NCBI GenBank assembly: GCA_035533295.1
Contig: DATLUA010000014.1
Location: 28,534 to 92,533 of the forward strand
Source of the DNA: Elusimicrobiota bacterium
GTDB lineage: Bacteria > Elusimicrobiota > Elusimicrobia > UBA1565 > UBA9628
Length of the DNA stretch: 64,000 nucleotides
Direction: 5' to 3'
In this document: positions 18,801-47,316 of the stretch, in pieces
How positions within the stretch are numbered: position 1 is the stretch's first letter
Layout of the letters: the number at the start of each line of letters is the position of its first letter
The notes under the pieces: model-generated
Told to the model about the DNA's origin: nothing
Seen by the model: only the letters and a program-made list of their open reading frames with translations
Databases searched by the model: none
Position numbers and translations under genes: made by a program

Positions 18801-20145
18801 GCTCTTTCGCGGCCTGTTCCCCTACGCTGAAAAGAGGGTGGCGCGGCGGCTCTGTCGTCTCGGTCTTTGGCGCAAGCTCGCCAATTATCTTTGGGTTGAA
18901 TTTCTAATCGGGCGGGGCTCCGTTCGCATGTGGGGGGGCAAGCCCTACTGGCTCACCGTCGATCCGACGAATTTTTGCCAGCTCCACTGCCCCTTTTGCC
19001 CCACGGGCGCCAACCGGGGGGTGCGCGGTAAATCGTCCATGTCCCTGGAACATTTCAAGAAGTTCCTCAATCGCGTCGGTCCGTGCGTCATCCACATGGA
19101 CATGATGAATTGGGGCGAGTCGCTGCTGAACAAGAACCTGCCGGACATGATTGCCCACGCCAAGCGCTACGGCATCGAAGTCAAGCTCGACGCCAACTTC
19201 AACGATGTCTCCGAGGAGACCGTTGAGAGGCTCGTCCTGTCGGGCCTCGACGTTCTGAGCGTCTCCATCGATGGAATTTCCCAGGAGACCTATGGCCGAT
19301 ACCGCGTCGGCGGGAAACTGGATCGGGTTTTGGCGAATCTTGAGGTTTTGGTGCGTAAGCGCCGGGAACTGGGTCGAGCCACCCCGCACATCATCTGGCA
19401 ATTTCTGGTTTTCCGCCACAACGAGCACGAGGCGGGAGGCGTCGAGTCATTCGCGCGCGCGCGCGGCGTGGACCAAGTGAGCTTCGTGGCCCCCTTCCTG
19501 CCCAACGAGCCGGGTTATTTGTCGGAATGGTCCGCTCGCGCGCCCAATTTTCGCCTTTACCCCCTGCCGGAAAAAGAACCGACGCCCGAGGAAATGGAGC
19601 GCGCTAAAAACAGCGTTCATGTAAAGCAGGTTCCTTCGGCGGAGGCTTTTCACGCGCGACGGTTTCAGTCCCGCCACCTGCTGAACTGGATATACCTTTC
19701 CGGCTTACTGACGCAGGCGCGCGGTCTTGAGAGTGGGATGAGGGAAATCTGGCGGCGGATGAGGGCGGCCATTTCCCAGGCGAAGGCTTCCGCGGCGGGC
19801 TTGGACACGGCGCCTTTTTCCGGAGCCAAGGGAGGCGCTCGCGCTATTTGCAAATGGCCCTGGGCCGGCATGGCGGTTAATCCCAACGGCAGCGTGTCGC
19901 CCTGCTGCAGCATTGAGAGCGAGTCCGACGATTTCGGTAGCGCCTTCGCGCAGGGCTGGGGAATGCTTTGGAACGGCCCGAAATATCGCGCGTCCCGACG
20001 ACATGTTCGCCGTTACGTTAAAAATCGCCGCGGAGTTCTTCCACACGCGGATCATGTCTGTGAACGCTGTACGGCCATCGGCTACGCCAATTTTAAATTT
20101 CCCATTCAGTGGACCAAGGACGCGCCGGAGGGCAAAAGCGCATGA
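18778..20145 (+). CDS. radical SAM/SPASM domain protein
   Basis: CQLHCPFC motif. C-terminal SPASM (NPNGSVSPCC...GMLWNGPKY...CERCTAIG). Start chosen at the ATG at 18778 with AGGTGGG upstream; the TTG at 18742 is an alternative. Overlaps the upstream gene by 23 nt. Confidence 0.8.
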   Translation: MPESMSARLFRGLFPYAEKRVARRLCRLGLWRKLANYLWVEFLIGRGSVRMWGGKPYWLTVDPTNFCQLHCPFCPTGANRGVRGKSSMSLEHFKKFLNRVGPCVIHMDMMNWGESLLNKNLPDMIAHAKRYGIEVKLDANFNDVSEETVERLVLSGLDVLSVSIDGISQETYGRYRVGGKLDRVLANLEVLVRKRRELGRATPHIIWQFLVFRHNEHEAGGVESFARARGVDQVSFVAPFLPNEPGYLSEWSARAPNFRLYPLPEKEPTPEEMERAKNSVHVKQVPSAEAFHARRFQSRHLLNWIYLSGLLTQARGLESGMREIWRRMRAAISQAKASAAGLDTAPFSGAKGGARAICKWPWAGMAVNPNGSVSPCCSIESESDDFGSAFAQGWGMLWNGPKYRASRRHVRRYVKNRRGVLPHADHVCERCTAIGYANFKFPIQWTKDAPEGKSA

Positions 20146-22109
20146 AGGCGGCCCTTGTCCAGCCTCCCGTCTGGTGGACCGTTGACCCGCCCTTGGGCTT
20201 GGCGCAAATCGCCGGCTGTCTCAAGCATCACGGCCACGAGGTGTTCGTATTCGATTTGAACATTCTTCTTTGGAAGGACCGCCTCAAGAAATACGAAAGC
20301 CTGTGGGGATGGGAGCAGTTCCATTTCTGGAACCAACCGGAGTTCGTCTCGCGCTTCTTTGCGGAGCATGAAGCGCTGGTCAGCCGCTACGTCGAGTCGA
20401 TTCTGCGCACGGACGCGCCCGTCATCGGATTGTCCGTGCACAACGGCTCGCACTTGGCCGCCTTGGAAATCGCGCGCCGCATCAAAGCCGGCGATAAGCG
20501 CCGTAAAATCGTTTTGGGGGGACAATATTTTTTCTTCGGCGACAAGGTCAAGGAGATGCTCTCGGAGTCTTGCGTCGACGCCGTTGTCTGCGGAGAGGGC
20601 GACGAGTCGTTCCCGGAACTCATCAGGCGCCTGGATTGCTCCGGCAGCATTGAGCCGCTGCCCGGGGTCTGGATCAAGCGCGCGGGCGGGCTGATCTCCG
20701 GCGGAGAGCCTATTGCCATCAGGAACTTGGATCGGGTGCCCTTCGCCGATTTCACAGGTTTTCCAATGGAGCTCTACACCGATCCGGAGCGCCTGCCCAT
20801 CGCCGCCAGCCGCGGCTGCGTCTGGCAGTGCCGCTTTTGCAGCGCACGCGCTTTTTGGAGCGGCTACCGCTACATGGGCGGAGAGCGCATTTTCGCGGAA
20901 GTCCTGCACCACCGCAAACTCTACCCGCCGCGCGGCCACGTGGAGTTCTACGACATCACCGCCAACGGAGACGTGAAGGCCCTGCACCGCTTCAGCCGGC
21001 TCTGGATCGACGAAGTGACCGCTCGCCCCGCGCGCGCCACGGGCTGGAAAATCAACGCCATCATCCGTCCGGAGATGACACCCGAGGTGTTGCGCGATTT
21101 GCGCAAGGCTAACTGCCACGACATCATCTACGGCATTGAGAGCGGATCGCCCAGGCTGCTTAAAGCGATGAACAAGGGCTTCGTCGTCCCCGTGGCGGAG
21201 GAAGTTCTCCGGAATACCCGCGCGGCCGGCATCGTGACCGTGGGCAACTTCATGTTCGGCTTCCCCGGTGAGACGGAGGAGGATTTCGCGCAGACGCTCG
21301 AGTTTTTGCGCCGCAACCACGCCAGCTTCAGCCGAGTCTACGCCAGCGCCACGTTCACGAGCCTCGAGGAAAAAAGCTATCTTAAGGATCATCAAAAGGA
21401 TTTTGGAATCAAGGAAGTCCCGCCCGAGCGGTTTCACAACCTCTATTGGGAAAGCGACGACGGCGCTAATACCTATCCGGTACGCCTCGAACGCTACAAA
21501 AGATTCCGTGCCCTGGCGATTTCTTTGGGCATCGACGCTTATAAGGGGGTGAACGGTTCCTTGGAACAGGATCATCTGGCCAATCTGGCGCAATATCATC
21601 ACTACGCAGGCAAGCCGTTTTCCGCCGTCGCAAATTACCTTGATTATCTTGATGGCGACCTCTACCATGATCCGACCCACCGTCATTTGGCCGAGCAGAG
21701 GCCGGCTCTGGACGCGCTCCTACGCGCGCAAAAAGCGCTGACCAAGGCCAATCTTTTAGCCGAGGCCGTTCCCGAGGCGGAGGCCATTGGGCGGGACGTG
21801 GAGCGCCAAGTTCGCGATGGCGCCGGGGTCGCCTCTATTTTGGCTGAATGCAAAGATAGAAAGGGAGAAGCCTTTGAGTTGGCCCGCTTTCTAGCGCGGG
21901 CCTGGTGTTCCCTCAAAAGCTTGCCGGGGCAGTCTTTTCGGATATCATGGGAGGGAGGTTCGTTCGTCCTCTATTGGTCTCAGGAAAAGGCGCCGGGAAT
22001 CGCGGATTTGCGCGCTTTGAGGAGCCGTATGGACCTCCATTTAAGGCTCGCCGAGGTGGAAATTCGCCGCGGCGAGGACAGGAAGCCCGCGCCCGCGTGC
22101 GTGAGATGA
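20142..22109 (+). CDS. B12-binding-domain radical SAM protein (class B)
   Basis: MKAALVQPP N-terminus, GEGDESFPEL, ASRGCVWQCRFC motif. ATGA overlap at 20142. The ORF is trimmed from 20109. Confidence 0.85.
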   Translation: MKAALVQPPVWWTVDPPLGLAQIAGCLKHHGHEVFVFDLNILLWKDRLKKYESLWGWEQFHFWNQPEFVSRFFAEHEALVSRYVESILRTDAPVIGLSVHNGSHLAALEIARRIKAGDKRRKIVLGGQYFFFGDKVKEMLSESCVDAVVCGEGDESFPELIRRLDCSGSIEPLPGVWIKRAGGLISGGEPIAIRNLDRVPFADFTGFPMELYTDPERLPIAASRGCVWQCRFCSARAFWSGYRYMGGERIFAEVLHHRKLYPPRGHVEFYDITANGDVKALHRFSRLWIDEVTARPARATGWKINAIIRPEMTPEVLRDLRKANCHDIIYGIESGSPRLLKAMNKGFVVPVAEEVLRNTRAAGIVTVGNFMFGFPGETEEDFAQTLEFLRRNHASFSRVYASATFTSLEEKSYLKDHQKDFGIKEVPPERFHNLYWESDDGANTYPVRLERYKRFRALAISLGIDAYKGVNGSLEQDHLANLAQYHHYAGKPFSAVANYLDYLDGDLYHDPTHRHLAEQRPALDALLRAQKALTKANLLAEAVPEAEAIGRDVERQVRDGAGVASILAECKDRKGEAFELARFLARAWCSLKSLPGQSFRISWEGGSFVLYWSQEKAPGIADLRALRSRMDLHLRLAEVEIRRGEDRKPAPACVR

Positions 22110-22117
22110 GGCCGCCA

Positions 22118-22146
22118 TTGACAATGGGGGGGCATGCCGCTATCCT
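22118..22146 (+). promoter_or_regulatory. candidate internal sigma70-type promoter (TTGACA-17-TATCCT) embedded in palindrome CCATTGACAATGG
   Basis: Consensus -35 TTGACA at 22118-22123, a 17-nt spacer and a -10-like TATCCT at 22141-22146. The -35 sits inside the perfect 13-nt palindrome at 22115-22127. This lies in the only sizeable gap (55 nt) of this part of the operon. Confidence 0.3.
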
Positions 22147-22164
22147 TAATGAGATTATCGCGCG

Positions 22165-23337
22165 ATGAAGACATCGACCATGGAAGCTGAAGCGTTGGCT
22201 GCGGTCGCGCAAAAAACGCCCCCCACTTTCTCCGCGCTTCGCCGCCGCCTTTTAGAGCAGCGGCAGCGCGAAAATGTCGCGCTCAACAATCGGGAATGGG
22301 AAGAGAAAAAAATAATTCTTTCCAGCACCCCGCAACGAATCTTCCTGCAAATCAACGCCGTGTGCAACGCGGATTGCGTCTTCTGCTCCAAGGGCTACGA
22401 TTACCCGCTTTTCCGCATTGATGAATACAGGGAGAAATACGGGAGGCAGATCACCCCGGTGCTGCAAAAAGCGCGCGAGGTCATTCTGACCGGCTCGGGC
22501 GAGTTCATGGGCCTGCCGGACGCCCCCAAGATCATCCGCTACTTCAACAACGAGTTCCCTCACGTCGAAAAATACATCGCCACCAACGCCTCCCATCTCA
22601 AACCCGAGATTGTGGATTTAATCGCGGGCTCCGGCAGCCGCTACACCCTGCAGATCTCGCTGCACGGCAGCGACGAGGAAACCCACAAGCTCATGATGCG
22701 CTACAACTCTTATCCGCGCGTCATGGAAAACGTCCGCCGACTGATGGAGGCGCGCGGCCGCGGCGGCAATCTCTCGATTTCCTTCATGTTCGTCATGACG
22801 ACCTTGAACGTGGAAAACCTTCCGGATTTTGTGCGCTTCGCCAAGGACATGGGCGCCGAACGGGTCTTGGCGGGCTATTTCTACATCTACGAGGCGCAGC
22901 AAAAATACCTGTCCCTCTATTTCAAGCAGGACTTGGCCAATAGAATCATCGATGAGGCCCGGCGCGTCGCGCAAGAAGTGGGCATCGAGGTCCGCCTGCC
23001 GCACAAGTTCGGGCAGCGGCCCGAGGCGTCCTCCAAGCCCACCTCCTGCATCGAGCCGTGGCATCAGGTGATGGTCAATCCTGACGGGGCGGTTCTTCCC
23101 TGCGACGTCTATGGGGGCTTCAACGAGAACTTGAACCAGAAAAGCTTTATGGAAATCTGGAACGGACCGGCCTACCGCGTGATTCGGGCCGCCCTGCGTC
23201 GAGGCGGGGGGTGCCTGACCACCTGCCCGCGGCATAACCCCATCGGCATCAACGATTGGCGCGCGCACGTCATCCACCGCCCCAAAGAGGACCGCCAAAT
23301 CGCGAAGGAGTATCGGGAGGCCCTGAGAAAGCCATGA
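22165..23337 (+). CDS. radical SAM/SPASM domain protein
   Basis: CNADCVFC motif. C-terminal SPASM (MVNPDGAVLPCDV...FMEIWNGPAY...GGGCLTTCP). Confidence 0.85.
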   Translation: MKTSTMEAEALAAVAQKTPPTFSALRRRLLEQRQRENVALNNREWEEKKIILSSTPQRIFLQINAVCNADCVFCSKGYDYPLFRIDEYREKYGRQITPVLQKAREVILTGSGEFMGLPDAPKIIRYFNNEFPHVEKYIATNASHLKPEIVDLIAGSGSRYTLQISLHGSDEETHKLMMRYNSYPRVMENVRRLMEARGRGGNLSISFMFVMTTLNVENLPDFVRFAKDMGAERVLAGYFYIYEAQQKYLSLYFKQDLANRIIDEARRVAQEVGIEVRLPHKFGQRPEASSKPTSCIEPWHQVMVNPDGAVLPCDVYGGFNENLNQKSFMEIWNGPAYRVIRAALRRGGGCLTTCPRHNPIGINDWRAHVIHRPKEDRQIAKEYREALRKP

Positions 23338-24293
23338 ACGCCGAAACCTCCCTGAACATGGCTTCCGCCTTGCCCAAGCGCACGGTTGTTTTCGCCTGGG
23401 ACATGCACTACAGTTGCAACTACCGCTGCCCTTACTGCTGGTACACCACGACCGGCTGGACGGAGCTGGCCAAGAAAAGCGTTTACAAGACGGCCAAGGA
23501 GTGGGCCGCGGTGTGGGAGCGGATGCACCGAAAATACGGCCGTTGCCAGCTGCGCATCACCGCGGGCGAGCCCTTCACATACCCCGATTTCCCGGACATC
23601 GTCAAAACCCTGACGCAGTGGCACGATGTGCAAATCACCAGCAACTGCTCGAACACCGAGGCCATGGAGAAATTCGCCGCCCAGGCCGATCCGGCCCGCG
23701 TCGAGGTGGACTGCACGTTCCATCCCCTGCAGGGCGAGTTCGAGGCTTTCGTGGAGAATGTTCTGCGCTTGAGGCGCCGCCAATTCACCGCCAACGTTTG
23801 CTACCTCGCCTATCCGCCGCAGATGCCCCGGATGGGAGAGTTCAAGAAACGCTTCAAGGACCGCGGCGTCTACATGAACATGGCCATCTTTTGGGGAAAG
23901 TACAAGGACAAGGACTATCCGTTCGCCTATACCGAGCAGGAAAAAGCCTGGATCAAGGAAGTCATCGGGTATGAAACCGGCCCCGAGACCGTCAATCTTG
24001 ATCCGCTGGTCATTAAAGGGAAAGTTTGCGGCGCCGGCCAGCGCTACGCCGTGGTGCAGGCCGACGGCAGGGTCTACCGCTGCGGCCAGCTTTGCCACGA
24101 GGGCATGTCCTTGGGCAGCATTTTCGATCCGGGGTTCGAGCTTTATCCCACCGGACGGCCCTGCGCCGTGGACTATTGCAAGTCCAAGGAATTTCAAGCG
24201 GCCTGGGAAGACGAGGAAAAGCAGAAGATGCTGCAGAAAAACGAAATTTTGGCTGAGGACGCCGGCGCCGCGGCGCCGGCACAGCGCGCATGA
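23334..24293 (+). CDS. small radical SAM paralog A (CNYRC-x-YC family, partial SPASM)
   Basis: FAWDMHYSCNYRCPYCW, a GEP motif (AGEPFTYP) and a C-terminal CGAGQRYAVVQADGRVYRCGQ...PCAVDYC. ATGA overlap at 23334. Confidence 0.85.
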   Translation: MNAETSLNMASALPKRTVVFAWDMHYSCNYRCPYCWYTTTGWTELAKKSVYKTAKEWAAVWERMHRKYGRCQLRITAGEPFTYPDFPDIVKTLTQWHDVQITSNCSNTEAMEKFAAQADPARVEVDCTFHPLQGEFEAFVENVLRLRRRQFTANVCYLAYPPQMPRMGEFKKRFKDRGVYMNMAIFWGKYKDKDYPFAYTEQEKAWIKEVIGYETGPETVNLDPLVIKGKVCGAGQRYAVVQADGRVYRCGQLCHEGMSLGSIFDPGFELYPTGRPCAVDYCKSKEFQAAWEDEEKQKMLQKNEILAEDAGAAAPAQRA

Positions 24294-25297
24294 CCTCCGA
24301 GCGCGCCGGAACCGCCCTGGAGCCGTCCGATAAGACGGCGTGGCCCTGGTGGAGCAACGAGGTCTGGGACCGCGTGTCTTTTACCTGGGATTTATGGTAC
24401 GGCTGCAACTACCGCTGTTCCTACTGCTGGTGGGAAATGGACAACCTCTGGGCGGAACTCGCGAAAAAACACCGCATCCTGCCACCGGAGCAGTGGCTTG
24501 CGTGCTGGGACCGGATTTACGATCTTTATGGAACGACGCGCGTGGACGTGCTTGGCGGGGAACCCCTGCGCTATCCTTCGTGGAAGCAGCTTTTCGAAGG
24601 GCTTTCGCGGCGGCATCGGGTTTCCATTACGACGAACCTTTCCGTTTCGATGGCGGATTTGCGGGAGATGACGGACCGGGTTTCCCCCGAGCGTATTCAT
24701 TTCGCGGCCAGCTACCACCCGCAGTTCGCGAAGTGGAATGATTTTATCGAGAAGATAGGATTCCTGAAGGAGCGGGGCTACTTCCCGCACGTTCTGGTCG
24801 TGGCCTGGCCGCCGCTGCTCAAGGACCTTGCGCGTTGGAGCGATTTTTTTCGGCAAGCGGATGTTCCCTTCACTACCAGCGTTTTCCAGGGTCGATATGA
24901 GGGAAGGGAATATCCCGAATCCTACACGACGGATCAGAGAGCGCTTTTGGGCTTGAATATTCCCATCGCGGAAGAGCAGCGCTACCGCTTGGAGCGACAA
25001 AGCACACAGGGCAAGCTCTGCGGCGCCGGGCACGTCTACGCGAACATCAAAGGGAACGGGGACGTCTACCGCTGCGGCCAGGATTGCCTCGGCGGCGCCA
25101 AGCCGCTTGGGAATATTTTCGATGTGGGCTTCGGTTTGCACAAGGCGCCGGCGCCCTGCCCGTATAAGCACTGCAGTTGCGGTGAGTTCGCGTTTTTATG
25201 GGAGGATTGGACCCGGAAAAAAGGGCGGCTTGAATTCGCCGTTGCCAATTCCCTGCGCAGACAAGAGGCGCAAACGCGGGAGGCCCGGCATGGCTAG
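24290..25297 (+). CDS. small radical SAM paralog B
   Basis: FTWDLWYGCNYRCSYCWW, GGEPLRYP and CGAGHVYANIKGNGDVYRCGQ...PCPYKHCSCGEF. ATGA overlap at 24290. Confidence 0.85.
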   Translation: MTSERAGTALEPSDKTAWPWWSNEVWDRVSFTWDLWYGCNYRCSYCWWEMDNLWAELAKKHRILPPEQWLACWDRIYDLYGTTRVDVLGGEPLRYPSWKQLFEGLSRRHRVSITTNLSVSMADLREMTDRVSPERIHFAASYHPQFAKWNDFIEKIGFLKERGYFPHVLVVAWPPLLKDLARWSDFFRQADVPFTTSVFQGRYEGREYPESYTTDQRALLGLNIPIAEEQRYRLERQSTQGKLCGAGHVYANIKGNGDVYRCGQDCLGGAKPLGNIFDVGFGLHKAPAPCPYKHCSCGEFAFLWEDWTRKKGRLEFAVANSLRRQEAQTREARHG

Positions 25298-26138
25298 CCC
25301 GCAGGTTCGCTTCACTTGGAACATCCACTGGAGCTGCAACTACCGCTGTTCCTACTGTTTTTTTGATGGACGCTGGGCGGAGTACGGACGTCGCAACGTC
25401 TACCAGAGCGTGGATCAGTGGATGGGACACTGGCGGCGGATTTATGAAAAATACGGGCGGTGCTATCTGACCATCAACGGAGGTGAGCCATTCGCGTATC
25501 CCAACTTCGTGGAGTTGATGGTCCAGGTCTCGTCTCTGCACTGGCCCATCAACGTCACCACGAACACGTCCTTGCACCTTAAAGATTTTGTCGGCCGCGT
25601 CGATCCGGCCAAGGTCTCCATCTCCATCAGCTTTCATCCGCAGTACCACACGATCGATGAGTTCCTCAAAACCGTGCGGTTCTTGAGAGAGCGCCGCGCG
25701 AACATCGGATGCATCAATTTCGTGGCCTGGCCGCCTTTTTTGAAGGATTTGGCCGAATATATCCGCCGGTTTCAGGCGGAAGGGGAGAGCCTCAAGGTTA
25801 TTCCCTTCATCGGCGCTCATGAGGGTGTGAATTATCCAGACAACTACAGCGAAGGGCAAAAAAAAATCCTGGGGCTCACCGATAATTGGCTGGAGAGCAA
25901 GCGCCACGAAGGCATGCTCTGCCGCGCCGGGCACCAGTCGGCGCTTCTTCTGCCGACCGGCAAGGTGGCCCGTTGTGGGCAAATCGGCGACCGCTATCTC
26001 ATCGGGGATTTTTTCCAGGAAGGGTTTTCTTTGATGAAAGAGCCCATGCCCTGTGATGAGCAATTTTGCCCTTGCGATGAGTGGAAAGTCATCCCGGATG
26101 AAAAGCCGCCGGAGAAGGCGGGGGCGTGGCTGCCGTGA
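25290..26138 (+). CDS. small radical SAM paralog C
   Basis: FTWNIHWSCNYRCSYCFF, GGEPFAYP and CRAGHQSALLLPTGKVARCGQ...PCDEQFCPCDEW. Start at the ATG at 25290, which overlaps the upstream stop by 8 nt. Confidence 0.85.
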   Translation: MASPQVRFTWNIHWSCNYRCSYCFFDGRWAEYGRRNVYQSVDQWMGHWRRIYEKYGRCYLTINGGEPFAYPNFVELMVQVSSLHWPINVTTNTSLHLKDFVGRVDPAKVSISISFHPQYHTIDEFLKTVRFLRERRANIGCINFVAWPPFLKDLAEYIRRFQAEGESLKVIPFIGAHEGVNYPDNYSEGQKKILGLTDNWLESKRHEGMLCRAGHQSALLLPTGKVARCGQIGDRYLIGDFFQEGFSLMKEPMPCDEQFCPCDEWKVIPDEKPPEKAGAWLP

Positions 26139-27502
26139 TCCGATTAACGTTGGTCCAATGCCCCGCTTGGGGCGTCGACGATCCGCCTCTGGGGGTGGCC
26201 CAACTGCTCGGCTGCGTGGCGCACTGCAACCATCACGGCCGTCCCTTCGACGTCAATATCCGTCTTTGGCAGGAATGCGCTCCAGAGGAGCGGCGTTTCT
26301 GGGGTCAGGATGTTCTGCCATCGTGGAATGATCGCTCTTGGGTCGCGGCTAGGGCCGAGGCATGGGAAGAGAAGCTCTCGCGTTATGCGGAGGAGATATT
26401 GGCCGATGATCCGCGAGCCGTGCTTTTGTGGGCGGCAGAAGGGTCCCAATGGTTTAGCCTTGAGATGGCCAAGCGCATCAAGACGCGCAATGGCACCGCG
26501 ACGGTTTTCATCGGCGGGCCCTATTTCAACGATGCGGCCCGGGTGAGTGCCTTTATCGCCGAGCCCTGCATCGACGGAGTCATGGCTGGAGCGGGCGACG
26601 ACCTGCTGGCGAAGCTCCTGGGGCTTTACCAGGCCTGCGGCCGCTGGATGCCATTACCGGGGATGACGGTTAAGGAGAAAGGGGCCATCGCTAGCGGAGG
26701 CCGCCCGGTACCTTTTACGTTCGACTGGGACTTGGCGCCTCTGTGCGATTTTTCTGGATTCAAAACGGAACTTTACCGCAAGCCCCTCCAGATGCCGCTC
26801 GCGTCGAGCCGCGGCTGCCGCTGGTCCCACCCTTCCTGCGCGCGGGATTATTGGGGCAAATATTCATTCAAAAGCGGAGACAGGATATTCAGCGAGGCAG
26901 CCAAGCAGCTCCACGATCAGAGATTTTGGCGGCACCTTGAGCTTTACGATCTCGACGCGAACGGCAAACCGGACAGCCTCAAGCGCTTTAGCGAAATGAT
27001 TCTTGAGAACCGTCTTCCTGAGGCCGGCTTGACCTGGAGCATGAACGCCTCGCTTGATTCGGGAGCGGACGCGCAAAGACTCGCCCTTTTCGCGAGCGCG
27101 GGCTGTCGGGAAATCGTTTACACCTTGGAGGCCGATTCGCCGCCCGTCGTGCCGCAAGCGGCTGAACGAATTCTTCGAGATACCCATGAGGCTGGGATCG
27201 ATTGCGCTGTTTTTCTCTCTTCTATTGGAGGCGCGGATACGCCTAAATCCGATTTTTCGTCTATTTTAAGCGCAGTCGACCATCTGCGGCCATGGCTTGA
27301 CGGCGTCGTGATTGACAGGACGGTTTTAGACGTGCCTGCCCGTCACCGGGGCTCGGTGCCGGGCATTGCGGCGCGCGAGGAGCAACTGGAGATTTTTTGT
27401 GGGACCTTGGGAATGACGTGGTCTCCATTTTTCAGCCAGGGAACGACGGGGTTGCGCGTCGCGAGCCGCAGCGCAAAGCCCGCCGTGTTGGCGGCGCGCT
27501 AG
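26126..27502 (+). CDS. degenerate B12-binding-domain radical SAM-like protein (CxxxHxxC; likely non-canonical or non-catalytic)
   Basis: B12-rSAM-like N-terminus (LTLVQCPAWGVDDPPLGVAQLLGC) with a degenerate GEGE motif (AGAGDDLL). The motif position reads ASSRGCRWSHPSCARDYW, so the middle Cys is replaced by His. GTG start at 26126, overlapping the upstream gene. Confidence 0.7.
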   Translation: MAAVIRLTLVQCPAWGVDDPPLGVAQLLGCVAHCNHHGRPFDVNIRLWQECAPEERRFWGQDVLPSWNDRSWVAARAEAWEEKLSRYAEEILADDPRAVLLWAAEGSQWFSLEMAKRIKTRNGTATVFIGGPYFNDAARVSAFIAEPCIDGVMAGAGDDLLAKLLGLYQACGRWMPLPGMTVKEKGAIASGGRPVPFTFDWDLAPLCDFSGFKTELYRKPLQMPLASSRGCRWSHPSCARDYWGKYSFKSGDRIFSEAAKQLHDQRFWRHLELYDLDANGKPDSLKRFSEMILENRLPEAGLTWSMNASLDSGADAQRLALFASAGCREIVYTLEADSPPVVPQAAERILRDTHEAGIDCAVFLSSIGGADTPKSDFSSILSAVDHLRPWLDGVVIDRTVLDVPARHRGSVPGIAAREEQLEIFCGTLGMTWSPFFSQGTTGLRVASRSAKPAVLAAR

Positions 27503-27518
27503 AAAGGGAGGAAGGCCT

Positions 27519-28595
27519 ATGGGTTCGTGCGGGACGGGAGGTTGCAGCGGTTGCGGCACGAAGCACGAGGGGCCGCAGGCTCCTGAAGGAGACATGGCCG
27601 CGCACGGAGAGTTGGACGCGGCCATTCCCCACAAAGAGCAGGAATACCGTCCTCTGCTGCCTCGTCACGCGCCGCCGTACAAGGTCCATTGGAATTGGGA
27701 GATCATGCTGCCCTGCAATTACCGCTGCAGCTATTGTGTCGTCCATAACGAAGCGGCGCAGTATCTTATCCTTGGCGTCCCCGAATGGCGCAAGATTTGG
27801 GAGCGGATGTTCAAGCTCTACGGTTGCTGCCAGGTGCGCTTTGCGGGCGGCGAGCCGACGATTTATCCAAACTTCATCGATTTAGTCGGGATGATTCTCG
27901 AGATGCATACCGTGGATATCACGACGAACCTGAGCTTCGACATCGAAGAGTGGATTAAGAAAGTCCCGAGCCAGGGCATCGCGATTTCCGGAAGCCTGCA
28001 CTTGGAGCATCAGAAGCCCGAGGATTTCTTGAAAAAACTTCTCGTCTTGCGCAATAAGGGGAACCAGCTCATCTCCGCATCCTTGGTCGCCTATCCCACT
28101 TATGTGGATAAAATCGACGGCATTAGGGCTATGTTCGAAAAGGAGAACGTTCTCTTCAAGATTATTCCGTTTAACGGCGTCTACGAGGGCAAACGCTATC
28201 CCGGCGCTTATACCGATATGGAGCGGGTCATGCTGGGGATGCAGGTGCAGCGATCGACCGATGAACTCGGCAAGACGCTCAACAAGCAGTGGCAGGACTA
28301 CGCCAATGCCAAGCCCAACGATAAGAACTTCCTGGGCATGCCCTGTCATATGGGCGAGATGTACGCCAAGATATATTCCGATGGGACGGTGCGCCGCTGC
28401 TGCCACACGGGCGTCGATGTCCTGGGCCACATCACCGATGAAAATCTGCGGCTTTTCGAGAAGGCGGAGCCCTGCACGGTGATGAGCTGCAGCTGTTGGA
28501 AGCCCATGGTGGCCGGGAAATACGAGGAGAAGGTACACATGCTGTGGCAGTCGGCGGATCATCCTGTTTATCCGGTGAAGGCGCCCAATGCCTGA
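27519..28595 (+). CDS. small radical SAM paralog D with Cys/Gly-rich N-terminal extension
   Basis: N-terminus MGSCGTGGCSGCGTKHEG followed by a ~50-aa linker, then VHWNWEIMLPCNYRCSYCVV, GGEPTIYP and PCTVMSCSCWKP. Strong RBS (GGGAGGAAGG). Confidence 0.85.
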   Translation: MGSCGTGGCSGCGTKHEGPQAPEGDMAAHGELDAAIPHKEQEYRPLLPRHAPPYKVHWNWEIMLPCNYRCSYCVVHNEAAQYLILGVPEWRKIWERMFKLYGCCQVRFAGGEPTIYPNFIDLVGMILEMHTVDITTNLSFDIEEWIKKVPSQGIAISGSLHLEHQKPEDFLKKLLVLRNKGNQLISASLVAYPTYVDKIDGIRAMFEKENVLFKIIPFNGVYEGKRYPGAYTDMERVMLGMQVQRSTDELGKTLNKQWQDYANAKPNDKNFLGMPCHMGEMYAKIYSDGTVRRCCHTGVDVLGHITDENLRLFEKAEPCTVMSCSCWKPMVAGKYEEKVHMLWQSADHPVYPVKAPNA

Positions 28596-29229
28596 AAATA
28601 AAAACGCGTCGTTTTGCCGCTGGCGGCGGTTCGGAAAGGCCGGCGTCCGGTTGGACGCCGAAAAAATCCTCTATATAGATCCGATCGTCATCGAGCCCGG
28701 CGCGCCCAAGGCCGACATCGTGCTGCTGACCCATGGTCACGCGGAACACTTTTCTCCGGACGACGTTGCGAAGGTGTCCAGCGCGCAGACCGTGGTGGCA
28801 GGGCCCGCGGCCTGCGTGGGGCTTTTCCGGCTCAATCAACTGCCGTTTGAAGCGGGGGAATCGAAAACGGTTCTAGGAGTCTCCGTCATGGCGACGCCCG
28901 CGTATTGTCCGGATGATGCCCGGCATCCCAAAGAAGCCGGAGGGTTGGGATACCTCATCGAGATGGGCGGCGTCCGCATTTTCTGCGCCGGAGATACTGC
29001 TGTCGTGCCGGAATTGCGCGGCCTCAAGGCGGACGCGGGCTTTCTTCCGGTGGCCGAGGACTTGATGTCCGCCCGAACGGCGGTGGCCCTGGCTCGAGAC
29101 ATGGGGCTGCGGATGGCGGCGCTCACGCATGCCGAGCCGGGCTCCGCGCTGGAAAAGGATTTTATCGAGTTGGCCCAAAGAGAAGGCATCGCGGCGTGGC
29201 TGCCGGAGCCGGCTTTCGCGGCGGCTTGA
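28588..29229 (+). CDS. MBL-fold metallo-hydrolase
   Basis: HGHAEH metal-binding motif (LLTHGHAEHFSPDD), a later Asp (FCAGDTAV) and His (LTHAEPG). 213 aa. Overlaps the upstream gene by 8 nt. Confidence 0.75.
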   Translation: MPENKNASFCRWRRFGKAGVRLDAEKILYIDPIVIEPGAPKADIVLLTHGHAEHFSPDDVAKVSSAQTVVAGPAACVGLFRLNQLPFEAGESKTVLGVSVMATPAYCPDDARHPKEAGGLGYLIEMGGVRIFCAGDTAVVPELRGLKADAGFLPVAEDLMSARTAVALARDMGLRMAALTHAEPGSALEKDFIELAQREGIAAWLPEPAFAAA

Positions 29230-29256
29230 CGGCAGTCGAAGGCACAGGAGATTGAT

Positions 29257-30582
29257 ATGAGCGGATGCGGCGACAAGTGCGGAGGATGCGGAGGGGGGTG
29301 CGGATCTGAATCCAAGCCCAAGGTGAGCAGCTTCGCGCCGGTGAAGCTATCCTTGACGTCTCGTGCCGCTTCGGCGCCGACGGCTGCTGTGGAAAAAAAC
29401 AGCGGCGGCCGAACGCCCGGCTTTAGGCGCTACCTGCCGCCCTTTAAGGTCTTCTTCACCTGGGACATCCAGTACGCCTGCAACTACCGCTGCAGCTACT
29501 GCATCATCTTCAAGAGCCCGCAATGGGATTCCTTCCTGTCCAAGAAGGACCGGCCGCCGATCCCTGCGGAGCGCTGGATGGAAATCTGGGACGACATCCA
29601 CGATCAATACGGCAGCGCTCACATCCACTGTTCAGGAGGCGAGCCGTTCTATTATCCGCGCTTCATCGACATCCTGGCCCACATCACCAAGAAGCATACG
29701 ATGGAGTGCGACACCAACTTGTCCTTTCCTGTCGACCAATTCATCGACAAAGTCGAGCGGGGGCGCTTCCGTTTCGCGCCGTCGTTTCATCCCGAGTTCG
29801 CGGAGATAGGCCCCTACATCGAAAAATGCGTGCGCTTAAGGAAGGCGGGCTATGACTTGGAGGGAGTTAATTATATCTGCTGGCCGCCGCATTTAAAGAA
29901 AATCCCTGAGTTCCAAAAGGCGTTCAACAAAATAGGCGTGGTTCTGACGCTTATTCCCTTTCGCGGGAGCTTCGCGGGTAAGGATTATCCCGACGCCTAC
30001 ACTCCGGAGGAGAGGCGCTGGATCAATCAGAACAGCGGCAATCCGGTGCTTTCGGAGGACTACGGCAACTGGTACAACGGCACCGGCCAGGGATCCAAAA
30101 AACACGAGAATCTGATGGTGGAGAAAGTTCCGCAGCAAGAACCTGAGCCGTTGCCGTCTTCCGCGGCCGTCGCGCCGATTACGCCGGCCCAGCCGGCGGC
30201 GGCACCTTCGCAAATTGCGGCGGGCCCCACGCCGGAGCCTTCTGAGGTCGCCTCGGAGACGGCGGCCAGGGCGCTGGAGGAAATTCGCGCCCACGAGGCG
30301 CAAAAGACGCGGGGAGAAGGTTGCGCCAGCCATGGTCGTACGGCCGTCAATTGCCGTGCCGGCCAGATGTACGCCAAAATCCATCCCGACGGCAACGCGC
30401 TGCGGTGCTGCTTCATCGACGAGCGAGGCTCGATGGGCAATCTCATCGACGGGACCTTTAAGCTCTACGATGAGCCGGAACTCTGCGAATATCCGGCCTG
30501 CAGCTGCTGGAAGAGCATGATTGTCGGAGAGGAGGGCCGCTGGCTGCGCCATTGGGTCGGCGTGGCCAAAAATGCCGCATGA
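29257..30582 (+). CDS. small radical SAM paralog E with Cys/Gly-rich N-terminal extension and internal Pro/Ala-rich insert
   Basis: N-terminus MSGCGDKCGGCGGGCGSES followed by a linker, then FTWDIQYACNYRCSYCII, GGEPFYYP, a PEP/PAQPAAAP-rich insert and CRAGQMYAKIHPDGNALRCC...CEYPACSCWKS. Confidence 0.85.
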   Translation: MSGCGDKCGGCGGGCGSESKPKVSSFAPVKLSLTSRAASAPTAAVEKNSGGRTPGFRRYLPPFKVFFTWDIQYACNYRCSYCIIFKSPQWDSFLSKKDRPPIPAERWMEIWDDIHDQYGSAHIHCSGGEPFYYPRFIDILAHITKKHTMECDTNLSFPVDQFIDKVERGRFRFAPSFHPEFAEIGPYIEKCVRLRKAGYDLEGVNYICWPPHLKKIPEFQKAFNKIGVVLTLIPFRGSFAGKDYPDAYTPEERRWINQNSGNPVLSEDYGNWYNGTGQGSKKHENLMVEKVPQQEPEPLPSSAAVAPITPAQPAAAPSQIAAGPTPEPSEVASETAARALEEIRAHEAQKTRGEGCASHGRTAVNCRAGQMYAKIHPDGNALRCCFIDERGSMGNLIDGTFKLYDEPELCEYPACSCWKSMIVGEEGRWLRHWVGVAKNAA

Positions 30583-31133
30583 AAATTTATTTAAGCTACA
30601 GTCTCGCCGAGAAAGATAAGTCTATTTTGGATAAGATCGTGGGACTTTCCTCCGATTTCGGCGTCACGGTGGTGCCGGCTCCTCGTTCATGGCCGTCTCA
30701 GGACGCCGTGCCGCCGGAGGTCGCCGAAGCCATCGACTCCGCGGATTTCGCACTTTTTTGGCTGACGGTTGACGGTCCGGCCCTCTCCTGCATCAACTTG
30801 GAGGCTGGTTATATACGGAATTCTCCCCGACGACTGCCTTTTATGATTTTTTCGCCTAACGGCTTTGAGCCCTCGGGATGCCTGCAGTATCGTCCTTTCG
30901 TTCGCTTCAATATCCGCGACACGCGAATCACCATCGGCCAGATCTGGGATTTTCTCCACCATGAATACTGCGACCAGCCGCAAGCGGCTGCTGCTTTTGG
31001 GGGCGTTTTATTGGCTCTCGTCGGGATGCTGTTGATGCGTCACGCGCCTGAGGTGCCGCCTCCCACGGATGATGAAAAATACCATGAGCAATTGCGCCAA
31101 GCCGCGGTCTTGCTGCGCGGAGGTCAGTCGTGA
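30579..31133 (+). CDS. hypothetical membrane-anchored protein (possible TIR-like fold)
   Basis: Starts MKIYLSYSLAEKDKSI, which is reminiscent of a TIR betaA strand, and has a C-terminal TM helix (AAFGGVLLALVGMLLM). ATGA overlap at 30579. The ORF is trimmed from 30552. Confidence 0.45.
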   Translation: MKIYLSYSLAEKDKSILDKIVGLSSDFGVTVVPAPRSWPSQDAVPPEVAEAIDSADFALFWLTVDGPALSCINLEAGYIRNSPRRLPFMIFSPNGFEPSGCLQYRPFVRFNIRDTRITIGQIWDFLHHEYCDQPQAAAAFGGVLLALVGMLLMRHAPEVPPPTDDEKYHEQLRQAAVLLRGGQS

Positions 31134-32527
31134 CGCCTGCTCGGCCGGCACCGTTTTCCGCCCCATCGGGACTCTCGCCGCGGGATCTCGCCCTACGGCA
31201 CGAGAAGCAGGCGCGCGAGCATTATTTGAAAGGGGATTATCCCTCCACGGTCGAAGATCTCAAGCGTTGCCTTGAAACCGCCGTCGTGCCCGAGCACAAG
31301 GACTTGCGCATGCGGCTCCTTATCCTGCAGAGCTTGCGCCGTTTCGGCAAGCAGGACGAGGCGTGGGCGGTCCTGCGGGAGATGGAGGGCCGCTACGGTG
31401 AAAGCGGCGAGAAATACATCCGGAATCTTCTGCTCAACGAAAAGGAGATTCAAGAAGGCCGCATTAAGATAGAGTCGTATCCCACGCGCCTGACCGTGCG
31501 GCCCACGAGCCGCTGCTCGGTCCACTGCATCATGTGCACATTTTGGAAGGAAACGCCGTGGGATATGCCGCAAAAAACCCTGGACGAGGTCGCCGATCTC
31601 TATCCTTACCTGGAGGACATCCTTTGGCAGGGCGGCGAACCCTTTGAGATGGATCGCGAGATTCTTGAGCGCATTCTTCTGCGCGGCCGCGACTATCCGC
31701 GCATGCTCCAGAACTTCATAACCAACGGGCAGCACATCGATGAGCGCTGGGCCAAGATATTGGTGAGCATGAACGTCCATATGAAGATTTCCATCGACGG
31801 CACGACCGCGGAAGTCTACGAGAAGATCCGGGTGAAGTCCAGCTTCGAAAAAATTCTAACCTCCATCCAGAATCTCAACGGCGAAATGACACGGCAAAAC
31901 CGGCGCATCGGATTCTGGATTCACATGGTGGTCCAGCGCTTGAATTACCACCAGATCACGGACATGATCGAGTTCGCCCACCAGTACGGCTTTGACGGCG
32001 TGGCCTTGAGTCCCATGGAGGGGGATCTCTACCGCAAGATAGACGTCTTCAACTACGGCGATCCGGAGATTTGGCGCTCCATCGAGGAGCAGCGCGCGCG
32101 GGCCCGGCAGATGTGCCTCGACTACGGGATTTACCTTGAGGACAACATGCCGCCCCCGCCTTCGCTGGAGGACAAACCGCACCCCATAAGCGAGGAGGAA
32201 AGCGAGAAGAGATTTTCGCTCTACCCCATGCCCTTCGAGGATGGAGCGCGCTACGTTTCCAAGGAGTACTCCTATTTCTGCCTCTCCCCGTGGAAGAATA
32301 TGATTCTCAGAAACGGCGGCGGCGTCCTGCCCAACTGGCACTGCGGCGAGCGCTACATCGGCAGCATCCATGAGAGCTCGCTTCTGGAGATTTGGAACGG
32401 CGAACCCATGCAGAACGTGCGCCGCGGGATTGTGGAACGGCGTTTCGGCGGCGTCTGCCGCCACTTCTGCCTCTCCGGGGCCCTGATGGAGACCTGGAAG
32501 CACCACATGGAGTGGTACTGGTCCTAA
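31130..32527 (+). CDS. radical SAM/SPASM domain protein with N-terminal helical (TPR-like) region
   Basis: CSVHCIMC motif and C-terminal SPASM (CLSPWKNMIL...LLEIWNGEPM...GGVCRHFC). GTG start within a GTGA overlap, with a GGAGG RBS. Confidence 0.8.
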   Translation: MTPARPAPFSAPSGLSPRDLALRHEKQAREHYLKGDYPSTVEDLKRCLETAVVPEHKDLRMRLLILQSLRRFGKQDEAWAVLREMEGRYGESGEKYIRNLLLNEKEIQEGRIKIESYPTRLTVRPTSRCSVHCIMCTFWKETPWDMPQKTLDEVADLYPYLEDILWQGGEPFEMDREILERILLRGRDYPRMLQNFITNGQHIDERWAKILVSMNVHMKISIDGTTAEVYEKIRVKSSFEKILTSIQNLNGEMTRQNRRIGFWIHMVVQRLNYHQITDMIEFAHQYGFDGVALSPMEGDLYRKIDVFNYGDPEIWRSIEEQRARARQMCLDYGIYLEDNMPPPPSLEDKPHPISEEESEKRFSLYPMPFEDGARYVSKEYSYFCLSPWKNMILRNGGGVLPNWHCGERYIGSIHESSLLEIWNGEPMQNVRRGIVERRFGGVCRHFCLSGALMETWKHHMEWYWS

Positions 32528-32549
32528 AGCCGGCGATTTTGAATCGAGC

Positions 32550-34154
32550 ATGAGCCATAAAGCCGACGTCTTCCTAGTTCAAATGCCTCAGGCCTGCCCC
32601 GAGCCTAACATGGCCTTGGCGCAGCTCTATGCTTACATGAAAAAGGAAGGATTCCAGACGCGGGTTATGGACATCAGCATCGCCCTCTACCATCGCCGCA
32701 AGGCCGTATCGGCGAATTTGTGGGCCGATGAGACTTGGTCCATATGGATGGATGAGGCGTTCGTATCCAGATTTCTCGCTGAGGACAAGGAATGGATGGA
32801 GGAACGTTGCCTCAAGGAAATTCTTTCGGCGCCTAATCCCGTCGTCGGTTTCTCGGTGAGTGGCCCCTCTTTGCGCTCAAGCCAAGTGCTGGCGCGCTGG
32901 ATTAAGGACATCCGTCCGGACGCGCTCATAGTCATGGGCGGCCAAGTCTTCGCGGTGGAGCCGTTTTTCTACCGGCAGGCCATGGAGGACGCCTGCGTCG
33001 ACGCCGTCATTCTTGGCGACGGGGAGGAGACGTTGGCTGAATTGGCCGCTCTCTATGGCGAGGGCCGGGACTGGGGGAGTTGCCGCGGACTTTACGTGCG
33101 CGACCCCAAAGGCGGCTTTCGCTTTATGGGAGAGCGGCCGCTTCTGGATCTCGATAGCCTGCCTTTTGCCGATTACTCTGCTTTCGACATGAGTCTTTAC
33201 GGGAGCAACCACGTCAGCGGGCACGACTTGGTCTTGATGACAAGCCGCGGCTGCGTGAGGCGTTGCTCCTTTTGCGGCAACCGCACGGCGTGGAAGGGCT
33301 TTCGTCAGATGAGCGGAGAGCGGGTTTACGCCGAGATTGAGCATCAGCGGCGAGCCATGCCGAGCCTCTCTCATCCCGACAGCGAAATTAAATTTTACGA
33401 TCTGCTCATCAACGGCGACATGAAGAAAATGGGTAAGATGGCCGAGCTTCTGGCCGAGGGGCCGGAACCGCCGCTGCCCTGGAAGGACGCCAACGCCGTC
33501 GTGCGTCCGGAAATGACATTCGATATTTGCAGCAGACTTTATCAGGCGGGATGCCGCATCCTGATCATCGGCATGGAGTCGGGTTCGCAGAAGGTCCTTG
33601 ATGCGATGGACAAAGGGCAAACCGTGAGCCAGATGAAGGAAGTGCTCAAAAACGCCCACCGCGCCGGCCTCAAAGTTCGCGCCAACTTCATGTTCGGCCA
33701 CCCCGGCGAGACCGATGAGGATTTTGGCCGGACGATGGATTTTCTAAAAGAAATGCACCCGTATATTTACCAAGCCTACCCCAGTTACACGTTCACGCAT
33801 TTGGAAGGCCGGCTGGCGCAGAACCCGGAGAAGTGGGGCGTGCGAAAAAATCAGCATTACCTGTATTGGGAATCGGACGACGGCAGCAATACGTTTCCTA
33901 AGCGCCTGGAGCGCTATAAGGCGTTCCGGGAACTGGCTGTCTCCTTGGGCAAGCTCCCCATGGGCGACGGGCTTGTGCTTTCATTGAACGCCTACACGCA
34001 TTTTAATTTCGGCGGCTACTATGAAAATCTGGGCCAGCCACGGGAAGCCCTTGATCATTACTGGGAATATTTGAGAGAGGATCCTTCCAACGCCTTTGTA
34101 AAAGAGAAGATATTGAAGCTTTCGCGGGCGCTGGCGGCGGTCGGAGCCGCTTGA
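32550..34154 (+). CDS. B12-binding-domain radical SAM protein (class B)
   Basis: ADVFLVQMP N-terminus, GDGEETLAEL and TSRGCVRRCSFC. 534 aa. Confidence 0.85.
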   Translation: MSHKADVFLVQMPQACPEPNMALAQLYAYMKKEGFQTRVMDISIALYHRRKAVSANLWADETWSIWMDEAFVSRFLAEDKEWMEERCLKEILSAPNPVVGFSVSGPSLRSSQVLARWIKDIRPDALIVMGGQVFAVEPFFYRQAMEDACVDAVILGDGEETLAELAALYGEGRDWGSCRGLYVRDPKGGFRFMGERPLLDLDSLPFADYSAFDMSLYGSNHVSGHDLVLMTSRGCVRRCSFCGNRTAWKGFRQMSGERVYAEIEHQRRAMPSLSHPDSEIKFYDLLINGDMKKMGKMAELLAEGPEPPLPWKDANAVVRPEMTFDICSRLYQAGCRILIIGMESGSQKVLDAMDKGQTVSQMKEVLKNAHRAGLKVRANFMFGHPGETDEDFGRTMDFLKEMHPYIYQAYPSYTFTHLEGRLAQNPEKWGVRKNQHYLYWESDDGSNTFPKRLERYKAFRELAVSLGKLPMGDGLVLSLNAYTHFNFGGYYENLGQPREALDHYWEYLREDPSNAFVKEKILKLSRALAAVGAA

Positions 34155-34230
34155 GGAAGTGCGCGGGATTTTTAGCCGCTCCGACGAAAAATTCCTGCTC
34201 GCGCGAAAAAGAGAAATCCTGCCCTAAACC

Positions 34231-37102: not shown

Positions 37103-37119
37103 GGCTCGCCGGCTTGATT

Positions 37120-38845: not shown

Positions 38846-38852
38846 GTGAAAA

Positions 38853-40184: not shown

Positions 40185-40233
40185 AGGATTCTCCCGCGCC
40201 GCAATTCTTTCATGCCCTGGTGCGCCTGGCGCG

Positions 40234-41895: not shown

Positions 41896-41900
41896 GAGCG

Positions 41901-43838: not shown

Positions 43839-43839
43839 C

Positions 43840-44787: not shown

Positions 44788-44815
44788 ATATGGGATGGCG
44801 GTTTCAAACTAGATT

Positions 44816-46426: not shown

Positions 46427-46491
46427 TTGAAGACGGCGTAAAATAGTATACTTATCTCTCTAGAAAATAAAGCGGAAGCCAAAAACTAAAG

Positions 46492-47307: not shown

Positions 47308-47316
47308 GCGTCGGGC

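Follow-up and report, generated by a model that had tools for sequence, protein, structure and literature searches.

A maintained class B radical-SAM-fold protein with a CX3HX2C cluster loop, probably inactive in SAM cleavage, in a multi-enzyme operon of Elusimicrobia

Introduction

Proteins of the radical S-adenosylmethionine (SAM) superfamily are normally annotated by a motif of three cysteines, and a homolog without this motif tends to be written off as an error or a pseudogene. A gene from an Elusimicrobiota bacterium raises the question of what such a homolog is when neither explanation seems to apply. The window analysed here is a stretch of 64,000 nucleotides (positions 28,534 to 92,533 of contig DATLUA010000014.1, assembly GCA_035533295.1), and the gene in question, at 26126..27502 on its forward strand, encodes a 458-residue class B radical-SAM-fold protein whose motif reads CX3HX2C. 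It lies in an operon of radical SAM (rSAM) genes. A preliminary description made from the sequence had noticed the histidine and had treated the gene as a paralog of a neighbouring cobalamin (B12)-dependent rSAM (B12-rSAM); it took the histidine-bearing protein to be probably a catalytically inactive scaffold or partner, or else the user of a non-canonical cluster ligand. Is the histidine real, from what did it arise, and why has the protein been kept? The evidence below indicates that the histidine is a conserved character of one clade and that the protein, although it very probably no longer generates a radical, is maintained by selection.

The cluster loop

The three cysteines of the motif bind an iron-sulfur cluster, the fourth iron of which binds SAM (PMC10470005). 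The CX3HX2C gene begins with a GTG codon, about 10 nucleotides downstream of a Shine-Dalgarno-like site, GGAGAAGG. Its translation includes PLASSRGCRWSHPSCARDYW, in which the cluster loop C231-R-W-S-H235-P-S-C238 is encoded by positions 26816..26839 of the forward strand; the codons are TGC for C231 (26816-26818), CAC for H235 (26828-26830) and TGC for C238 (26837-26839). The loop of the neighbouring B12-rSAM (open reading frame, ORF, 20109-22109) reads AASRGCVWQCRFCSARAFW. In a BLASTP alignment of the two proteins (35% identity over 393 residues, E = 4e-71) H235 is opposite the paralog's middle cysteine, and a one-residue gap follows the third cysteine. This alignment and the comparison with the relatives described below place the substitution exactly where it had first been noticed. 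With C231-x3-H235-x2-C238 the protein departs from the three-cysteine pattern that defines the superfamily. A canonical motif has not been overlooked elsewhere, a misreading that the preliminary description had allowed for: the ORF contains no second CX3CX2C, and a scan of the window in six frames found 19 of these motifs, all in other genes.

Profile searches set the protein apart as well. The remaining rSAM genes of the operon all match the Pfam family PF04055 (Radical_SAM), whereas the CX3HX2C protein has no match to it at E <= 0.01 and falls short of its gathering score. P0001 and P0002, the identical and the 71% identical library protein described below, carry no precomputed Pfam domains, whereas the canonical relatives all carry PF04055 and all except P0008 also carry PF02310. 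The best-scoring curated NCBIfam family, for this protein and for its canonical paralogs alike, is TIGR03975 (RiPP maturation radical SAM C-methyltransferase), to which none of them can be assigned: the protein scores 43.6 bits and the paralogs score 129-139 bits, against a cut-off of 281.85.

Conservation of the histidine

A search of 5.8 billion proteins returned an identical sequence (P0001), a 71% identical one from a metagenome-assembled genome of Elusimicrobia (P0002), and proteins of ~460-490 residues that are 41-49% identical. Further close relatives were supplied by scans of genome and metagenome contigs. The sequences with the histidine, referred to here as the His clade, number six and come from as many assemblies, namely the window, L013 (90% identity), L014 (83%) and L001, L011 and L012 (71%). 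All six read SRGC[R/H]WSHPSC-ARDYW, so that the orthologs do conserve the histidine. Its codon is CAC in four sequences and CAT in the other two, and across the loop codons 228-241 the six orthologs differ by five synonymous changes and a single non-synonymous one (R232H). They start at an equivalent position, with GTG, TTG or ATG.

Because the state is shared by six assemblies and the histidine codon varies synonymously, CX3HX2C is a clade character and not an error. It is hardly conceivable that the explanation lies in faulty sequencing or assembly, or in a canonical motif obscured by misalignment; apart from the agreement of the assemblies and the two histidine codons, the replacement of cysteine by histidine takes two nucleotide changes, as the preliminary description had argued, and there is no other CX3CX2C for a misalignment to hide.

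Outside the clade, the homologs in the 60 fetched loci are canonical wherever an SRGC motif can be recognised. A comparison of 178 proteins, most of them the closest entries of a library of 1.8 billion proteins, yielded 224 canonical motif instances; the exceptions are the His clade and one module of P0096. The latter protein is a two-module fusion of 1381 residues, and its module 1 reads SRGCISKYAFC (residues 224-236), with tyrosine in place of the middle cysteine. This module (CISKYAFC) was weighed as a possible second case in nature and set aside, as it keeps GIESGS and GFPGE and its tyrosine is one nucleotide change away from cysteine. An error or a recent loss of the cysteine may explain the change.

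Origin from a canonical B12-rSAM

The closest canonical proteins are B12-rSAMs of ~460 residues from Elusimicrobia (P0003-P0008, P0013 and P0015), which are 41-50% identical to the CX3HX2C protein over nearly the full length. These sisters carry CPWSCxFC, GIESGS and GFPGETEEDF. Among the window genes, the CX3HX2C gene is their best match. Its position in the operon is the same in L002, L004, L005, L007 and L009, and mapping of the ORFs puts it in the B12-rSAM slot. Mutual best matches and gene position, the slot being the same in six related loci, place it in the ortholog group of the ~460-residue B12-rSAMs. The possibility of a recent paralog of the neighbouring gene was rejected on the same grounds, since identity to that neighbour is 35% compared to 41-50% to the canonical positional orthologs elsewhere. 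The simple paralogy proposed at first thus gives way to orthology. The 64-kb window holds no remaining canonical copy of the subfamily.

A neighbor-joining tree that includes the His clade and the eight sisters was calculated by a fast distance method with 100 bootstraps. The His clade is monophyletic in 100 of 100 replicates, and so is the His clade together with the eight sisters, whereas the sisters form a group without the His clade in 0 of 100. This nesting indicates that the CX3HX2C state is derived from a canonical ~460-residue B12-rSAM ancestor. As judged from the sequences, the gene is an ortholog that was changed in place and not a spare duplicate. The root-to-tip length of the His clade in this tree is ~10-20% longer than that of the sisters. 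An acceleration of the whole protein relative to the sisters was largely rejected, because identities between sisters (43-55%) are matched by those between sisters and the His clade (43-53%). The sequence comparison indicates that change in the His clade is concentrated in the motifs and in the C-terminal third.

Loss of the SAM-binding motifs

Columns conserved in at least 85% of 32 canonical family members were compared with the six His-clade sequences. Up to about residue 330, nearly all family-conserved residues are kept, and past residue 333 almost all are lost or variable. The kept residues include P13, P20-P21, D42, N44, W59, W67, K119, G130-G131, D150, G155 and G179, followed by D202, P205, D208, Y217, P224, S228-R229-G230-C231, C238, W243, D275, N279-G280, W304, C327 and Y332. 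The main exceptions before residue ~330 are A28L, S102W, L201W and C235H, with V/L24, partial G157A, L/F273, A/V308, P312S and M314 as further ones; only A28L, S102W, L201W and the partial G157A affect family-invariant residues of the N-terminal domain. Around the histidine, the clade has replaced the aromatic residue of the CX3CXΦC motif (F237S), carries P232R/H and S239A, and has deleted one residue past C238.

The rear half of the barrel, residues 331-400 (27116..27325, forward strand), is degenerate by the comparison of motifs, indels, selective constraint and model confidence. The GxESGS motif of strand beta4 has become [T/G]L[E/D][A/T][D/E]x, which is TLEADS in the window protein. The helix that follows it, SPxVLxxMNK (L..M.K), has been deleted in the clade. 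The GxPGETEEDF motif of beta5 reads IGGADTPKSDF in the window lineage and is deleted outright in the 71% subclade. In the superfamily SAM is contacted by the aromatic residue of the cluster motif, by a ribose motif on beta4 (here GxESGS) and by a GxIxGxxE-type motif on beta5 (here GxPGE). Of the SAM-binding motifs the CX3HX2C protein lacks these three and keeps the YDxxANG of beta2; it also retains E335.

Because the aromatic, beta4 and beta5 motifs have gone jointly with the cysteine, reductive SAM cleavage appears to have been lost, and with it, very probably, the ability to form the 5'-deoxyadenosyl radical. These additional losses strengthen the earlier suggestion of a protein that probably has no SAM-cleaving activity. 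The contrary explanation is a working rSAM enzyme that holds a [4Fe-4S] cluster on Cys-His-Cys, or on the two cysteines plus Cys207, and cleaves SAM in a non-canonical manner. The ORF is intact, is under selection and lies within the operon, all barrel strands are predicted, and YDxxANG and E335 are kept, as one would expect of an enzyme. Nevertheless, such an enzyme would have lost the aromatic residue, GxESGS, the helix and GxPGE together, with the beta5 loop deleted in half of the clade and the match to PF04055 absent. Moreover, constraint is relaxed at the contacts to the SAM ribose and adenine, where the canonical paralog is most constrained. We regard a working enzyme as very improbable.

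The clade has also gained residues. Cysteines C51 and C207 and two tryptophans, L201W and S102W (the latter in the loop below the corrin), are invariant in the clade and specific to it (residues 51, 102, 201 and 207, encoded by 26276-26278, 26429-26431, 26726-26728 and 26744-26746 of the forward strand). It is possible that these cysteines and tryptophans provide a replacement ligand or fill a cavity left by a lost cofactor.

Fold and the N-terminal domain

An AlphaFold 2 model was built from an alignment of 34 sequences, and the canonical sister P0003 was modelled from the same alignment. The model of the CX3HX2C protein has a mean pLDDT (predicted local distance difference test) of 84.3 and a predicted template modelling (TM) score of 0.85. 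Its N-terminal domain is Rossmann-like, with five strands, and is followed by six barrel strands (residues 222-225, 270-273, 303-309, 327-334, 359-364 and 393-396), which make up the partial (beta/alpha)6 TIM barrel of the superfamily. The top matches in a Foldseek search of the Protein Data Bank are all cobalamin-dependent rSAM enzymes: TsrM (6wte, E = 3e-15), OxsB (5ul4), CysS (9n1b) and TokK (7kdy), with E-values from 3e-15 to 1e-10 and TM-scores of about 0.5-0.64. The family profile matches TokK, OxsB, CysS and TsrM by sequence too.

The mean pLDDT of the P0003 model is 90.4. The two models differ in the cluster loop (pLDDT of 60 for the CX3HX2C protein and 87 for P0003) and in residues 331-400 (70-95 compared to 91-98), with a fall in confidence in the beta4-alpha5 region, and a short helix at residues 340-346 of the P0003 model is deleted in the CX3HX2C protein. 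According to the models, then, the fold is retained, and the predicted deviations are found at the cluster loop and on the SAM side of the barrel.

The N-terminal Rossmann-like domain, probably of the B12-binding type, and the linker that follows it comprise residues ~1-215 (26126..26770, forward strand) and are strongly constrained. The sequence match to PF02310 is weak (19 bits, compared to a Pfam gathering score of 32.1), and the assignment of a B12-type domain is supported by the predicted whole-length structural matches to TsrM, OxsB, CysS and TokK. The sequence AGAGDDLL, which had been read as a degenerate form of the GEGE cobalamin motif, is indeed present. The argument for cofactor loss built on it fails, however, because canonical relatives carry the same or a similar sequence: GAGDD (P0005), GAGED, GVGED and GAGDE, with GEGDE in the in-window paralog. 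No sequence motif of the family is diagnostic for cobalamin binding. S102, which is tryptophan throughout the clade, aligns with S72 of TokK, four residues before the lower-axial W76, and a change at this place below the corrin could alter the binding of cobalamin.

Selection on the gene

The ratio of non-synonymous to synonymous substitution rates (dN/dS) was calculated pairwise by the method of Nei and Gojobori between the window and five orthologous loci. For the whole CX3HX2C gene it is 0.10-0.25, compared to 0.004-0.13 for the flanking rSAM genes and ~0.19-0.21 for the gene of a metallo-beta-lactamase (MBL)-fold protein, and dN is ~2-3 times that of most of the rSAM neighbours. The constraint is unevenly distributed. 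Residues 1-330 have a dN/dS of 0.06-0.16 and residues 331-458 one of 0.30-0.41, a contrast that is significant by Fisher's test (p = 1.7e-5 for L014 and 7e-5 for L012). Residues 201-300, which include the cluster loop, are at 0.03-0.11, and residues 331-400 at 0.3-0.45. In the canonical paralog of the window, the corresponding beta4-beta5 region is the most constrained part of the protein, with a dN/dS of 0.033. The N-terminal domain (0.06-0.15) is as constrained as in the active neighbours. Invariance within the clade follows the same division: 91% of residues 216-260 (the loop and its surroundings) and 100% of residues 161-180 are invariant, compared to 26%, with 17 gap columns, of residues 331-400. 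Among the canonical sisters the same regions are about equally conserved.

With a whole-gene dN/dS of 0.10-0.25, the gene is, on the evidence of its substitutions, not a pseudogene; one part of it appears to have been released from constraint and the rest kept. Judged from sequence, it answers to the operational definition of a pseudoenzyme, in which cofactor and catalytic residues are gone, purifying selection persists, and ORFs are intact, here in six assemblies. The reading frame of a functionless gene could remain open simply because the loss is recent, and such decay would account for the relaxed C-terminal third with its indels and for a dN 2-3 times as high as in most rSAM genes nearby. 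It would not account for the overall ratio, for a dN/dS of ~0.06 over 330 codons at dS of up to ~1.5, or for an intact frame with a conserved start in six assemblies that span 71-100% identity. Decay of the gene thus seems a most unlikely explanation.

Probable role of the protein

We consider that the CX3HX2C protein is probably a maintained protein that no longer cleaves SAM and acts as a non-catalytic structural or binding subunit. The ancestor was a canonical ~460-residue B12-rSAM in a fixed slot of a multi-rSAM operon of the Elusimicrobia. In one clade the middle cysteine was replaced by histidine, and the aromatic residue of CX3CXΦC, GxESGS, the next helix and GxPGE were lost or deleted. 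Selection still maintains the Rossmann-like domain, the linker between the two domains and the barrel's front half with its mutated loop. The selection kept on these three parts is the reason for which a non-catalytic role is proposed. The protein may contribute structurally to an assembly of several rSAM proteins, or it may bind a substrate or cofactor. Its most plausible partners would be the translationally coupled rSAM encoded upstream and the always-adjacent 358-residue rSAM encoded downstream. An assembly is plausible because the gene always adjoins the most conserved rSAM gene of the operon and because relatives form multi-module polypeptides. By analogy, this suggests that B12-rSAM modules work in physical association, which would offer a rationale for keeping a dead subunit. 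In eukaryotic Dph1-Dph2 one of the two paralogous subunits is not the catalytic one.

Several observations weigh against a non-catalytic subunit. Few parts of the protein are as well conserved as the cluster loop with its two remaining cysteines, which would fit a retained metal site. The YDxxANG strand, the equivalent of GGE, is kept. C51 and C207 are new, invariant and clade-specific cysteines that might conceivably stand in for the lost ligand. The family evolves rapidly in every lineage, so that the divergence of the His clade is in part shared with its relatives. Finally, the partner or scaffold role is argued solely from gene order and analogy.

The first and third of these observations bear on another explanation, in which the loop binds a metal through C231, H235 and C238, perhaps with H/R232 or C207, and serves a role other than radical initiation. 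The metal could be an iron-sulfur (Fe-S) cluster or mononuclear, and the role, for example, electron relay to the neighbouring rSAM proteins or a TsrM-like, cobalamin-centred methyl transfer. A functionless loop would be expected to drift as the C-terminal third does, and this one is strongly constrained, with its histidine and both cysteines kept through synonymous changes. Besides the new invariant Cys51 and Cys207 and an N-terminal B12-type domain as constrained as in active neighbours, two precedents favour a metal site: the cluster of TsrM, a class B protein and the top structural match, is not in direct contact with SAM (PMC12931638), and electron transfer between rSAM clusters of separate molecules is documented for PapB. 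Against it, the literature searched yields no natural histidine ligand at the SAM-cluster site of an rSAM protein, the sampled divergence covers just 71-100% identity, at which three conserved residues are weak evidence, the confidence of the model is low in the loop, and S102W lies beneath the corrin, where it may influence cobalamin binding. A metal-binding role of some kind strikes us as rather unlikely. Its more specific form, in which an Fe-S or other redox metal on Cys231, His235 and Cys238 (perhaps with Cys207) has been repurposed for relay or for cobalamin-centred non-radical chemistry, is given slightly less credence again.

The operon and its surroundings

The enclosing cluster extends over ~38 kb (12116..49763, with genes on both strands) and contains 16 canonical CX3CX2C rSAM domains in 15 genes in addition to the CX3HX2C gene. 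It also holds genes for MBL-fold, TPR/GDSL-lipase, Sel1-twitch-rSAM and glycosyltransferase proteins. No precursor peptide was identified within 12116-49763, and the literature searched on the cluster, on STM4011 and on rSAM loci of Elusimicrobiota gives no characterisation of the operon.

The gene immediately upstream (25107..26138, forward strand; start probably near 25290) encodes a small STM4011-like rSAM with a canonical CNYRCSYC motif, and its stop overlaps the start of the CX3HX2C gene by 13 nucleotides. A gap of 16 nucleotides separates the latter from the downstream gene for the 358-residue rSAM (27519..28595, forward strand), which directly follows the B12-rSAM slot in every related cluster. 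The 358-residue rSAM is the most conserved protein of the operon, with 74-79% identity across lineages compared to 43-55% for the family of the CX3HX2C protein, which is the fastest-evolving; its dN/dS is 0.004-0.05. The canonical B12-rSAM paralog in the window (20109..22109, forward strand) has the motif CVWQCRFC, and the 655-residue P0010 implies a start at 20142.

The operon recurs in Elusimicrobia. It begins with a SPASM-type rSAM of ~385 residues, two or three small STM4011-like rSAMs and the ~460-residue B12-rSAM, and continues with an rSAM of 358-365 residues, sometimes one of 312-325 residues, an MBL-fold protein and further rSAMs. Three small rSAM genes precede the B12-rSAM slot in the window, compared to two in L005 and L009. 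The extra rSAM of 312-325 residues, between the 358-residue rSAM and the MBL-fold gene, is found in the canonical clusters L002, L004, L005 and L009 and is lacking in the His-clade clusters and in the canonical L007-type cluster. A connection between its loss and the change to histidine was considered and rejected, since the canonical L007-type cluster is also without it.

Other genes of the cluster have unusual architectures. A protein of 1013 residues (15025-18066, forward strand) is a fusion of a B12-binding rSAM (CVRRCAFC at 15790) and a SPASM/twitch-type rSAM (CNAKCVFC at 16990). The rSAM encoded at 29257-30582 (forward strand) has a Cys/Gly-rich N-terminus, MSGCGDKCGGCGGGCGSESKP, before its canonical CNYRCSYC. 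The product of 41901-43907 (reverse strand) combines a Sel1-repeat N-terminus with an N-terminal twitch domain and matches NF033640 (395 bits, cut-off 170); its SPASM/twitch domain precedes the rSAM core, and its relative in L007 has 1106 residues and TPR repeats. Three genes have no Pfam or NCBIfam match: 12116-13954 (forward strand, 612 residues), 44816-46426 (reverse strand, 536 residues) and 30552-31133 (forward strand, 193 residues). The last of these has orthologs in related clusters at 33-83% identity.

Outside the cluster, a HemW/HemN-like rSAM gene is found at 4937-6049 (forward strand). The only Rfam matches in the window are two transfer RNA genes, tRNA-Cys(GCA) at 10194-10269 and tRNA-Glu(TTC) at 61196-61266, both on the reverse strand; no cobalamin riboswitch was found in the window. 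According to Meheust et al., rSAM-rich loci of Elusimicrobia adjoin group VI nitrogenase paralogs; no Nif-like gene is present among the window ORFs that were scanned.

Relatives of the B12-rSAM also occur as giant single polypeptides of 2000-2700 residues (P0034, with 2331 residues, P0035, P0039 and P0040). Four B12-rSAM modules are present in each of P0034, P0035 and P0039 and two in P0040, and P0034 has an extra SPASM-type rSAM at its N-terminus.

Comparison with known systems

The immediate impact of these findings is moderate, since the superfamily is very large and the protein is a single degenerate member of it. The pattern of constraint is nevertheless informative: the B12-type domain and the cluster loop have been kept and the SAM-binding half of the barrel released, in what is probably a 'dead' class B module within a pathway of 17 rSAM modules. 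If it is a structural partner, clusters with many rSAM genes may work as physical assemblies, consistent with the multi-module fusions of the relatives. Should a cluster be bound by the Cys2His site, this would add to the coordination chemistry known for the superfamily, and the histidine would be the first natural one to serve as a ligand in the SAM-cluster site of the rSAM fold.

The nearest counterparts are the Elusimicrobia B12-rSAMs of ~460 residues. They occupy the same slot, after the small STM4011-like rSAMs and before the 358-365-residue rSAM, and share with the CX3HX2C protein the family-specific sequences GRPVPFTFDxDLAP, KYSFKSGDRIF and AGCREIVY. They possess CPWSCxFC, GIESGS, the SPxVLxxMNK helix, GFPGETEEDF and a PF04055 domain, whereas the His clade possesses none of these.

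Among proteins of known structure, TsrM (6wte), OxsB (5ul4), CysS (9n1b) and TokK (7kdy) have an N-terminal Rossmann-like B12 domain and a partial TIM barrel, an architecture that is also predicted for the CX3HX2C protein. They are only 12-15% identical to it and have the three-cysteine motif and a [4Fe-4S] cluster, whereas it is without the middle cysteine and the beta4 and beta5 motifs. TsrM demonstrates that the class B fold can be used without a 5'-deoxyadenosyl radical, with a cluster that does not bind SAM directly (PMC12931638). However, TsrM has kept all three cysteines and needs both cluster and cobalamin for methyl transfer. HemW is an rSAM scaffold that serves mainly in the binding and hand-over of heme and cleaves SAM weakly (PMC10114718; PMC10320005). 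Unlike the CX3HX2C protein, it is HemN-like and not of class B, and it keeps CX3CX2C and a cluster, which is needed for heme transfer.

The literature searched for CxxxHxxC and for pseudo-SAM or pseudoenzyme rSAM proteins contained nothing relevant. The NCBIfam family TIGR04347, a 'pseudo-SAM/SPASM protein' of haloarchaea, presumably owes its name to curators who marked rSAM homologs as pseudo-SAM proteins. It is of the SPASM type and not of class B; the CX3HX2C protein does not match it, and other genes of the window match it weakly. Motif-less proteins that resemble rSAM enzymes are thus already known to curators, and the kind is not new. What is new is an example from class B that is derived and conserved throughout a clade, with a fixed histidine at a ligand position and a selective constraint divided between the two parts of the protein.

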